A DNA stretch of 15,050 bases from a virus (lineage: Duplodnaviria > Heunggongvirae > Uroviricota > Caudoviricetes), in IMG/VR virus record IMGVR_UViG_2713896729_000010, positions 1-15,050 of that record; one strand, given 5' to 3'. Of the stretch, positions 829 to 3,488 are shown one piece after another. The position numbers and the translations under genes are program-made. Within the stretch, counting starts at the first letter, position 1; each line of letters opens with the position of its first letter. The notes beneath the pieces were generated by a model, which ran no database searches, had not been told where the DNA came from, and saw only the letters and a list, made by a program, of their open reading frames with translations.

Positions 829-961
829 GGTACAGAAAGACGGACGGCGAGTGGAGTTTACGGCCACTTCCGTGTCTGACCTGAAAAAATACATTGCGGA
901 GCTGGAGGTGCAGACCGGCATGACACAGCGACGCAGGGGACCTGCAGGATTTTATGTATGA
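829..961 (+). CDS. W: lambda gpW-like head-tail joining protein, 3' fragment (5' end lost at the gap)
   Basis: Frame from 830 translates [43 protein letters not shown], which matches the lambda W C-terminus as I recall it. Its stop overlaps the portal start in an ATGA junction (958-961). Confidence 0.85.
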
Positions 962-1839
962 AAACGCCCACCATTCCCACCCTTCTGGGGCCGGACGGCA
1001 TGACATCGCTGCGCGAATATGCCGGTTATCACGGCGGTGGCAGCGGATTTGGTGGGCAGTTGCGGGCGTGGAACCCACCGGGTGAAAGTGTGGATGCAGC
1101 CCTGCTGCCCAACTTTACCCGTGGCAATGCCCGCGCGGACGATCTGGTACGCAATAACGGCTATGCTGCCAACGCCATCCAGCTGCATCAGGATCATATC
1201 GTCGGGTCTTTTTTCCGGCTCAGTCATCGCCCAAGCTGGCGCTATCTGGGCATCGGGGAGGAAGACGCCCGTGCCTTTTCCCGCGAGGTTGAAGCGGCAT
1301 GGAAAGAGTTTGCCGAGGATGACTGCTGCTGCATTGACGTTGAGCGAAAACGCACGTTTACCATGATGATTCGGGAAGGTGTGGCCATGCACGCCTTTAA
1401 CGGTGAACTGTTCGTTCAGGCCACCTGGGATACCAGTTCGTCGCGGCTTTTCCGGACACAGTTCCGGATGGTCAGCCCGAAGCGCATCAGCAACCCGAAC
1501 AATACCGGCGACAGCCGGAACTGCCGTGCCGGTGTGCAGATTAATGACAGCGGTGCGGCGCTGGGATATTACGTCAGCGAGGACGGGTATCCTGGCTGGA
1601 TGCCGCAGAAATGGACATGGATACCCCGTGAGTTACCCGGCGGGCGCGCCTCGTTCATTCACGTTTTTGAACCCGTGGAGGACGGACAGACCCGCGGTGC
1701 AAATGTGTTTTACAGCGTGATGGAGCAGATGAAGATGCTCGACACGCTGCAGAACACGCAGCTGCAGAGCGCCATTGTGAAGGCGATTTATGTCTATCAT
1801 CTCACCGTAGTTGCCCGCATCGTTCGCCAACTCCACTGA
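958..1839 (+). CDS. B: lambda-type portal protein B, 5' part, interrupted by the island; residues 1-277 are portal, the last 17 codons (1788..1839) are island-derived
   Basis: [33 protein letters not shown]...[11 protein letters not shown] matches the lambda portal protein as I recall it. The frame diverges after the core at 1787 and stops at 1839. Confidence 0.93.
1780..1792. repeat. attL core (left copy of the 13-bp direct repeat)
   Basis: AAGGCGATTTATG; phage-identical sequence extends leftward (gccattgtgaaggcgat). Confidence 0.8.
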
Positions 1840-1915
1840 AACCCTTGCTGCGTCTGGAATGTCGTTTTCCATGCTTTTGATGACCGTTCATCACCCTTCC
1901 AGTTTTTCGCGGTTT

Positions 1916-1970
1916 TGTGTATTGCAATGTGTATTGCAAATTGGCGATCGGGATGGGTGTGTATTGCAAA
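1916..1970 (+). repeat. Three direct copies of GTGTATTGCAA, candidate integrase arm-type binding sites
   Basis: tgtgtattgcaa (1916-1927), tgtgtattgcaaa (1928-1940), gtgtgtattgcaaa (1957-1970), between the core and the int start. The same motif recurs near attR. Confidence 0.6.
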
Positions 1971-1987
1971 TCTCTTGAGGGCTTTTA

Positions 1988-3229
1988 ATGGCTATTGAAA
2001 ACAAACTCAGTGACAAACTGTTAAAGAGTCTTGTCGGAAAACGGCAGGACAAACAAAAAACAATAGCGGATGGGCGCGGGTTGTCTGTGCGTGTAAGCAT
2101 GGTTGGGGGGATCAGCTTTGTTTTTTACTATCGTCTTGGTGGCAGGGAATCCCCTCCGGTATGGCTTACACTTGGTCGCTATCCTGACATGTCTCTTGCA
2201 ACGGCCAGGCGCATGCGTGATCAGTGCCGTGAATGGCTGGCTGAAAATCTGGACCCCCGCAGGCAAATAAAACTTGCTGCCGAAAAAACTATGCAACCAG
2301 TGACCGTAAGGGATGCGCTGTTTTACTGGTACGACAATCACGCCACAACAGCCAGAAAAGAGCATGAATATTTAATAAAACGATTTGAAAAGCATATCTT
2401 CCCCTATATCGGTGATATGGCTATAGAACAGTGCAAATTACACACATGGCTTACCGTCTTTGACAGGATCAAAAAAAATGCGCCTGTTATGTCTGGTGCA
2501 ATTTTTCTTGATATCAAACAGGCGTTGCGTTTTTGTCGCGTCAGGCAATACATCGCGTGCGATCCCTTTGGAGATATTAACGTAAGTTATGTCGGGCGCT
2601 CATCCGGTATAAGGGATCGCGTTCTTAATATCAATGAAACCGCTGATGTATGGTCTTATGCTTACGGTAATAATTTGCTAACTCTGTCATCAATATATAA
2701 CCGAAGAATAATGGTTATCTGCCTGGTGTTTGGTTGCCGACAGCAGGAGGCGAGGCTATCCACCTGGGACGAATGGGATTTAAAAAACTGGGTATGGACA
2801 GTCCCAAAAGAGCACAGCAAAAACAAGGAGGCTATAGTAAGGCCTGTTCCTGACGGAATAAAACAATGGATCGTTAATCTTTACGCAGAAACAAAAAATC
2901 GCGGTTATGTTGTCGGTTGTGCTTTGCAAAGGGCGACAATAACAGGGGCTGCAAACAGAATATGCAGGCGTCTTGGTCATGATACTAATGGCTTGTGGTG
3001 CATACATGATTTCAGGCGCACATTTTCCACTACGCTTAATGATATGGGGGCGGATCCTTATATTGTCGAACTTCTTTTAGGTCATAAAGTGAAAGGGGTT
3101 GCTGGTGTTTACAATAAAAGCAGGCATATAAAGAAAAAACTTGAGGTGCTTAATATGTGGGTTAATTACCTTAATACGATAGCAGGATTTAACAACAACG
3201 TTATCGAGCTTAATAAAGAGGTGGTGTGA
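1988..3229 (+). CDS. int: Tyrosine site-specific integrase, P4-like family
   Basis: 413 aa. N-terminal arm-binding-like region (GRGLSVRVSMVGGISFVFYYRLGG...YPDMSLATARRMRDQ). C-terminal catalytic motifs CRQQEA (R), HDFRRTF (HxxR) and GVYNKS (Y nucleophile). SD gaggg 6-7 nt upstream of the ATG. Confidence 0.95.
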   Translation: MAIENKLSDKLLKSLVGKRQDKQKTIADGRGLSVRVSMVGGISFVFYYRLGGRESPPVWLTLGRYPDMSLATARRMRDQCREWLAENLDPRRQIKLAAEKTMQPVTVRDALFYWYDNHATTARKEHEYLIKRFEKHIFPYIGDMAIEQCKLHTWLTVFDRIKKNAPVMSGAIFLDIKQALRFCRVRQYIACDPFGDINVSYVGRSSGIRDRVLNINETADVWSYAYGNNLLTLSSIYNRRIMVICLVFGCRQQEARLSTWDEWDLKNWVWTVPKEHSKNKEAIVRPVPDGIKQWIVNLYAETKNRGYVVGCALQRATITGAANRICRRLGHDTNGLWCIHDFRRTFSTTLNDMGADPYIVELLLGHKVKGVAGVYNKSRHIKKKLEVLNMWVNYLNTIAGFNNNVIELNKEVV

Positions 3230-3230
3230 T

Positions 3231-3488
3231 ATGGCAATTTATTCTCTTGTTGATGAAAACGATTTGCGCACAATGAAGGACATTGATCGGTTCATTCGTG
3301 AAAAAGAGTGCATAGCACTTACCACGCTGGCAAACTCAACACGCTGGAAAATGGAGCAGGCAGGTAAATTCCCGCGACGTATCAAGATCGGTGAACGTGC
3401 TGCAGGGTATCGACTTTCAGAGGTTCAGGCATGGATCCGTGGTGAGTGGCATCCTGGATGGAAACCTGGAAAAACAAAACAGCAATAA
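3231..3488 (+). CDS. alpA: AlpA-family HTH regulator / excisionase-like protein
   Basis: 85 aa. Translation ...IALTTLANSTRWKMEQAGKFPRRIKIGERAAGYRLSEVQAWIRGEW resembles the AlpA/Vis helix-turn-helix. Start is 1 nt after the int stop, so likely translationally coupled. Confidence 0.85.
   Translation: MAIYSLVDENDLRTMKDIDRFIREKECIALTTLANSTRWKMEQAGKFPRRIKIGERAAGYRLSEVQAWIRGEWHPGWKPGKTKQQ

Follow-up and report, generated by a model that had tools for sequence, protein, structure and literature searches.

Does a satellite that sits inside one of the late genes carried by its helper prophage, in the same direction as that gene, owe its excision to the late transcription of the helper? The question is raised by a stretch of 15,050 nt (positions 1 to 15,050 of the IMG/VR record IMGVR_UViG_2713896729_000010; hereafter the window), in which an integrase gene (int) and alpA follow the 5' part of a broken portal gene. 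We consider this element a helper-embedded phage-inducible chromosomal island (HE-PICI) that interrupts the portal gene of a DLP12/lambda-like prophage, and we lean slightly towards the view that read-through of helper late transcription into int-alpA triggers its excision. The element family, the site group and the read-through idea are already published and are not new here: a 2022 preprint (10.1101/2022.07.18.500453) and the 2023 paper that followed it (PMC10111431) both propose that helper late transcription enters the satellite integrase gene, the abstract referring to late transcription driven passively by the helper and to a delay in expressing the interrupted gene. The accessible text of PMC10111431 makes no mention of a role for Q antitermination, of the 1-nt int-alpA spacing, of a third motif copy or of a terminator after alpA, all of which are described below, and antitermination is likewise absent from the accessible text of the preprint.

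The island and its portal junction

The window is an assembly of separate contigs joined by N10 spacers (819-828, 12935-12944, 13065-13074 and 13675-13684). The contigs across these spacers are unrelated, hence their adjacency is false and it is unsafe to read the window as a single locus. The sole real contig carrying the island is 829-12934, for which the complete genome NZ_AP045067 gives a 99.84% match across 12.1 kb. Proteins were examined by Pfam scans and RNAs with Rfam, and RefSeq annotation was taken from a 99.8% identical copy of the island.

Portal gene B is split at Pfam profile position ~241. Upstream of the split, on the plus strand, lie the 3' end of W (829-961), the helper's head-tail joining gene, whose 5' end is lost at the contig break, and the 5' part of B, ~276 codons long (958-1787; Phage_portal_2 profile positions 2-242). 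The W fragment was recognised by a 99.8% match to L001, one of three complete genomes with the same island, from position 19738 onward, W being annotated there at 19664-19870. The attL core (1780-1787, plus strand) is the 8-bp crossover identity block AAGGCGAT, the same block that the supplement of PMC10111431 lists for the B_Phage_portal_2_241 HE-PICIs. Native B stops at this core, and the broken frame extends 52 nt into the island up to a stop codon at 1837-1839. At the right end, the attR core AAGGCGAT (12704-12711, plus strand) is the last part of a flank (12654-12711) that matches the printed attR of Eco10269.11.B_Phage_portal_2_241, and it is followed by the beginning of the 3' part of B (12712-12934, plus strand; profile positions 238-304), truncated where the contig stops. 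When 958-1787 is joined to 12712-12934 the portal frame is open, and the rejoined B is 99.2% identical to lambda B (J02459 3378-3887) in a single piece; the same join in the complete-genome copy yields an intact 533-aa portal. The island thus lies inside a prophage late gene that it disrupts and carries no replacement sequence: precise excision rebuilds B, as the first-pass annotation of this DNA had expected.

The island (1788-12711, plus strand; 10,924 bp) can be placed securely in HE-PICI group B:Phage_portal_2:241, on account of (i), its att core, (ii), its attR flank, (iii), a doubled TGTATTGC motif, (iv), the ordered succession of four zones recovered by Pfam scans (Integration, Bro, Replication and Late) and, (v), the similarity of its integrase (Int). 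The HE-PICI survey comprises 491 islands at 14 lambda-type late-gene sites, all co-oriented with the target gene (PMC10111431; Tommasini, Mageeney and Williams 2023, NAR Genom Bioinform 5:lqad036), and it gives for the present group the identity block aaggcgat and, as helpers, ~60-kb prophages labelled Eco...60.R in the supplement (PMC10111431). The window shares with the group, as printed, the portal codon, the identity block, the attR flank (that of Eco10269.11), the doubled TGTATTGC, a size of ~10.9 kb, the helper type and co-orientation, and is best seen as a further copy. The clade was assigned by pairwise Int identity together with the att sequences: Int is 54% identical to that of Eco567.11capE (11capE), the HE-PICI prototype, 46% to that of a PICI located at fis and 40% to the EcCICFT073-type Int. 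The int, alpA and primase genes are all on the plus strand with W and B; indeed W, the portal 5' part, int, alpA and nearly all island genes share that strand, as noted at first reading, the sole minus-strand gene in the RefSeq annotation being at 4457-4762.

The int-alpA unit and its late-operon setting

The int gene (1988-3229, plus strand; Pfam Arm-DNA-bind_3 and Phage_integrase) encodes a tyrosine integrase of the HE-PICI clade and is preceded, 6 nt before its ATG, by a Shine-Dalgarno sequence read directly from the DNA (GAGGG, 1977-1981, plus strand). One nucleotide past its stop codon begins alpA, an excisionase/activator homologue (3231-3488, plus strand; Pfam Phage_AlpA), so that the two genes form a tight unit 200 nt inside the junction and on the same strand as W-B. 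The terminator scan and RNA folding agree with the earlier claim that no terminator separates the portal-frame stop at 1839 from int at 1988: no plus-strand terminator-like site was found between 945 and 3501, and the fold of 1770-2000 has no extra stability over shuffled sequences (z = 0.03). The unit is closed by a strong intrinsic terminator, the first strong one on the plus strand (3501-3519, or 3501-3526 in its wider delimitation; GCCCCTC-loop-GAGGGG then T6, from the terminator scan; fold z = -2.4). Taken alone, this arrangement is no better than chance: co-orientation is a 1-in-2 event and, at the shuffle rate of the terminator scan, a gap of 150 nt is expected to be terminator-free in ~92% of cases. 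Only when sites are compared does a non-random signal emerge.

The late-operon context can be followed in the three complete genomes, which carry the same island at 98.9-99.8% identity and differ in their early regions. The order is the same in all three: the antiterminator gene quuD (Q), a porin gene on the minus strand, the lysis genes essD-rrrD-rzpD, small morons also on the minus strand, nohD, A, W, B', the island, 'B, and C through J. In L001, a tR'-like terminator with a 15-bp stem stands ~140 nt past the quuD stop, in a pR'-tR'-like layout, and beyond it only weak terminator-like sites occur up to B'. The Q gene and the co-oriented genes up to B' are thus seen in three complete genomes and the terminator in L001. 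For the lysis operon of DLP12, control by a Q-type antiterminator has been reported, with RpoE and Hha as further regulators (PMC7918800).

An independent orientation census of genome contigs, in effect a small replicate of the published survey, gave six loci, of which four were usable (sites E:80 and C:110); L008 was unclear and L010 proved to be a chromosomal int fragment. Together with the prototype, five further HE-PICI loci could be compared, and in every one of them a truncated late gene of the same orientation precedes int (11capE, Kosakonia and Cedecea at capsid gene E; Rahnella and Kluyvera at protease gene C), which together with the window confirms co-orientation at three sites in five genera. 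No plus-strand terminator was found between junction and int in the four loci scanned (L002, L005, L007 and L009). The distance from the int stop to the alpA ATG is exactly 1 nt in 6/6 HE-PICI loci at the three sites. The terminator after alpA is seen in the window, 11capE and Kluyvera, and not in the other three. In the two protease-site loci, the truncated late-gene frame crosses the att arm and passes the int start codon at 4001 (L007 3463-4053, Rahnella; L009 3430-4053, Kluyvera), and ribosomes on the broken late gene would there reach the int start region.

The doubled HE-PICI-specific motif TGTGTATTGCAATGTGTATTGCA lies just 5' of int (1916-1939, plus strand) and presumably provides arm-type binding sites for Int or AlpA. 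A third, single copy of the motif (1958-1971, plus strand) stands between it and int, and the right arm of attP carries its own copy of doubled TGTATTGC (12608-12631, delimited elsewhere as 12608-12633; plus strand). The published doubled motif, tgTGTATTGCantgTGTATTGCa, is therefore found on both attP arms, its right copy ending ~75-80 bp before the core and its left copy starting ~132 bp after it; the spacing given in PMC10111431 is ~81 bp upstream and ~132 bp downstream. The doubled motif stops ~5 nt short of the Shine-Dalgarno sequence of int in five of the six loci, too close for any promoter to fit downstream of the arm sites, and no conserved sigma-70 promoter is seen upstream of them. 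Just 5' of the right-arm doublet there is a weak plus-strand promoter-like site (12578-12607; ATGACG-18-AATAAT, 9/12), which would point across attP to int in the circular form and which, alone, is indistinguishable from chance.

Orientation provides a further contrast. In a complete genome, the sister-clade PICI at fis is convergent with fis and has int at its far end, and an EcCICFT073-type island has a divergent neighbour; co-orientation is thus no default of this integrase lineage, and the comparative data make it look selected. An island-borne terminator between fis and int, suggested by the fis-PICI attL of the supplement, was considered and dropped, as the complete genome places int at the far end, and a terminator scan near the fis-PICI int gave nothing decisive. 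Considered together, the late-operon context, the terminator-free junctions, the 1-nt spacing, the motif at the ribosome-binding site and the orientation contrast give int-alpA the appearance of a unit that draws its transcription from upstream.

What would set off excision

A sequence of events may be proposed from this layout. In the lysogen, helper late transcription would halt at the terminator just past the Q gene and int-alpA would be silent. After induction, Q-modified RNA polymerase coming from the late promoter would proceed through S-R-Rz, Nu1, A, W and B', enter int-alpA and probably go on across the entire co-oriented island, yielding Int and the AlpA directionality factor/activator. 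Int and AlpA would then excise the island from replicated composites, releasing circles of the island and leaving helper genomes whose portal gene is repaired. Pfam scans and RefSeq annotation show neither portal, protease, large terminase nor tail genes in the island; as the first three are lacking, neither partner would obtain capsids until some copies excise.

Physical read-through from the helper late operon into int-alpA is likely on these comparisons, and for read-through as the main trigger of excision we put the chances at about even. The kinetics of the prototype bear on this second step. After mitomycin C, quantitative PCR and deep sequencing of att sites showed that the composite was excised at 1 h and then replicated, and that precise excision of the 11capE satellite was detected no earlier than 2 h, when 42-98% of the composite copies had undergone it (PMC10111431). 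This timing fits late expression, as a matter of att-site kinetics and not of transcripts. The first-pass annotation had named late read-through as the excision trigger: the layout it relied on is present, orientation is biased and the 11capE timing agrees, while the induction of canonical PICIs in trans speaks against it. Context, spacing, arm-site and orientation comparisons strengthen its inference modestly. If read-through is indeed the trigger, it is by helper transcription, and not by a protein-protein or protein-DNA signal, that the satellite senses its helper.

Several points weigh against this conclusion, and some of them favour a trans mechanism that we regard as rather unlikely for this element: as in canonical Gram-negative PICIs, a helper factor would activate an island promoter inside or upstream of int that drives alpA, and AlpA would auto-activate and bring about excision. 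Lambda and phi80 lysogens activate an EcCICFT073 alpA reporter on a plasmid in an SOS-independent manner, with auto-activation by AlpA (PMC6092414); AlpA overexpression alone leads to excision and replication in EcCICFT073 (PMC6092414), and the same was reported for EcCIMP1. The AlpA of the window resembles that of the EcCICFT073-type island (60% identity over 50 residues), and HE-PICIs, being from the same stock, may keep the trans mechanism. The terminator after alpA also implies that an ordinary, terminator-sensitive polymerase transcribes int-alpA: it would be useless against a Q-modified polymerase and suggests a promoter other than the late one, unless it acts as a filter. Co-orientation, for its part, could have been selected otherwise, for the avoidance of head-on collisions, for the expression of downstream helper genes or for passive expression of the island capsid genes, and it is these roles that it would serve under trans induction. 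The helper Q gene, pR' and most late genes are absent from the window, W itself being cut by the contig break at 819-828, and the literature retrieved under 'helper-embedded' holds neither HE-PICI transcript data nor later experimental work. Finally, the scan for promoters between junction and int, a crude consensus match that is blind to activator-dependent promoters, returned no sigma-70-like site. For what it detects, this same result tells against trans induction, and no conserved promoter appeared upstream of int in the six-locus alignment; a weak promoter-like site of 11capE is not conserved in the window. The spacing points the same way: int and alpA of an EcCICFT073-type PICI (L013) are separated by a repeat-rich gap of 365 nt, which we infer to be the site of the helper-responsive, AlpA-auto-activated promoter, versus 1 nt in the window, where the canonical intergenic promoter region is thus missing, although a promoter inside int could still exist. 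A purely trans mechanism would moreover not require co-orientation at all sites.

It seems quite improbable that Int is instead made constitutively at low level, excision being set by another signal on alpA or on regulators of the Bro zone, with late transcription serving only the island late genes. The int promoter of EcCICFT073 is AlpA-independent (PMC6092414), and candidate regulators have been placed in the Bro zone (PMC10111431), but alpA is joined to int in one unit and would be hard to regulate apart. The Rfam scan, moreover, detected no P4-like immunity RNA (C4 or isrK) in the island, its only returns being an isrG match below threshold and, in the unrelated left contig, sok; and the excision of 11capE follows helper induction and replication in the published account (PMC10111431). 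We give very little credit to a dead-end insertion, in which a decaying prophage was inactivated and co-orientation is an accident of att polarity. Many HE-PICI helpers do look truncated and no virions were recovered for 11capE and its helper 50icd, but all 14 sites are co-oriented and the prototype excises precisely (PMC10111431), and the helpers of the three complete genomes have a full late operon. Divergence argues in the same sense: compared with L001, the island differs by 4 substitutions and 1 indel in 10.9 kb and the 960-nt W/B flank by 12 substitutions, a pattern that suggests either recent movement of the island from one diverged helper prophage to another or recombination of the flank.

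A stricter version of late read-through, which we consider unlikely, would make int-alpA a cassette without any promoter of its own. While integrated, it would be expressed only by Q-antiterminated helper late transcription; in the circular form, by transcription reading around attP from the island right end. In lambda, Q-modified RNA polymerase ignores intrinsic terminators, and an intrinsic terminator placed at ~1850 should not block Q-modified late transcription. The terminator after alpA would then be a filter: in those islands that have it, only Q-modified polymerase would enter the Bro, cell-division-inhibitor and replication genes. If this were true, the master switch of the satellite would be wired in cis to the helper antiterminator and not to a helper protein.

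Remaining features and relation to known systems

Downstream of the Integration zone (int and alpA, 1988-3488, plus strand), the Bro zone contains a Bro-N gene (3545-4123, Pfam), a ylcI-like gene of the YlcI/YnfO family (4457-4762), which is the minus-strand gene mentioned above, and an icd-like gene (4953-5150), the last two from RefSeq annotation. A long open reading frame (ORF) at 4080-5150 is probably spurious, RefSeq calling there the minus-strand ylcI-like gene and the short icd-like gene. The Replication zone encodes a DUF4222 protein (5759-6058), a D5-type primase (DUF5906; 6055-7809) and a single-stranded DNA-binding protein (SSB; 8406-8855). The Late zone encodes a capsid E-like protein (9072-10112), a decoration D-like protein (10122-10463), a second AlpA-family helix-turn-helix (HTH) protein (10475-10858), conserved in 11capE and located between the decoration gene and a cos-like segment, a Nu1-like terminase small subunit (~11060-11601) and a hypothetical protein (11613-11894). 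Membership among the capsid-forming PICIs (cf-PICIs) was considered and rejected, as only capsid E-like, D-like and Nu1-like genes are present; the fis island is the contrast case.

The cos-like segment (10883-10959, plus strand) is 77 nt long, lies 5' of the Nu1-like gene and is 91% identical to L001 17001-17077, upstream of the helper nohD. The Nu1-like protein matches Pfam Phage_Nu1 over its C-terminal half only (profile positions 79-158). The island's own cos-like segment and this partial match hint at a small terminase with a swapped DNA-binding end, which could redirect helper packaging. At 11476, an A-run has lost 1 nt by comparison with the 99.8% identical copy; this deletion frameshifts the Nu1-like gene (ORF 11048-11530 versus an annotated 180-aa protein), and may be either an error of the draft sequence or a true inactivation.

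The non-coding right end of the island contains a repeated GATAACGCnAnATTGCGCTGGCTG (11910-11933 and 12096-12119) and, 3' of it, three tandem 54-nt repeats (12143-12304), each with a short GC-rich palindrome (CCTGCAATGCAGG, CCCCCATTGGGGG and CCTCAATTTGAGG); the repeats at 12143-12304 have no Rfam match. Outside the island contig, the window holds a chromosomal mokC/hokC-sokC locus beside an insertion sequence (1-818; Rfam sok match and sequence comparison) and, by sequence comparison, a gadA/gadB fragment (12945-13064), a J fragment and a tail-fibre fragment (13075-13674 and 13685-15050). These stretches (1-818 and 12945-15050) were rejected as helper context, being unrelated or non-adjacent contigs.

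One of the nearest known systems is Eco567.11capE, which resides in prophage 50icd of E. coli NRG857c. Its architecture matches that of the window, with 67% identity in AlpA and 94.6% DNA identity over the SSB/capsid/decoration/HTH block in addition to the Int similarity given above. It differs in that it targets capsid gene E (site E:Phage_cap_E:80) in an icd-integrated helper, and its right end has RefSeq HEPN and DUF262 genes, with no terminase small subunit annotated. EcCICFT073 and the canonical Gram-negative PICIs likewise have int, alpA, primase and packaging genes of phage origin all pointing one way, with AlpA as master activator and a lambdoid helper (PMC6092414; Fillol-Salom et al. 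2018). EcCICFT073 differs by its chromosomal location, its divergent neighbour roxA and its more distant Int. In L013, a different doubled repeat (GGTGTAGTTAAT twice, ~3690-3720) lies just 5' of int and mirrors the position of the TGTATTGC doublet, which is consistent with arm-type Int sites. Satellite P4 resembles the island in its related Int, AlpA(Vis) and primase, in a Bro-type gene after alpA and in the activation of satellite late transcription by helper late regulators. It differs by its integration into a tRNA gene and its activation in trans by P2 Ogr, and the Rfam scan found no CI/seqA-type RNA in the island.

A further parallel is with the regulated gene integrity elements (skin in sigK, SPbeta in spsM and phi10403S in comK), in which a split gene is restored by precise excision under developmental timing. 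Here, unlike in those elements, it is a second mobile element that owns the split gene, and the satellite instead of the cell would profit from the timing. PMC10111431 itself makes the comparison with regulated gene integrity elements. If the proposed trigger is correct, the helper portal gene would be kept hostage until excision, in a distinct mode of satellite-helper coupling, and regulated gene integrity would have been turned to the service of a parasite of a parasite.

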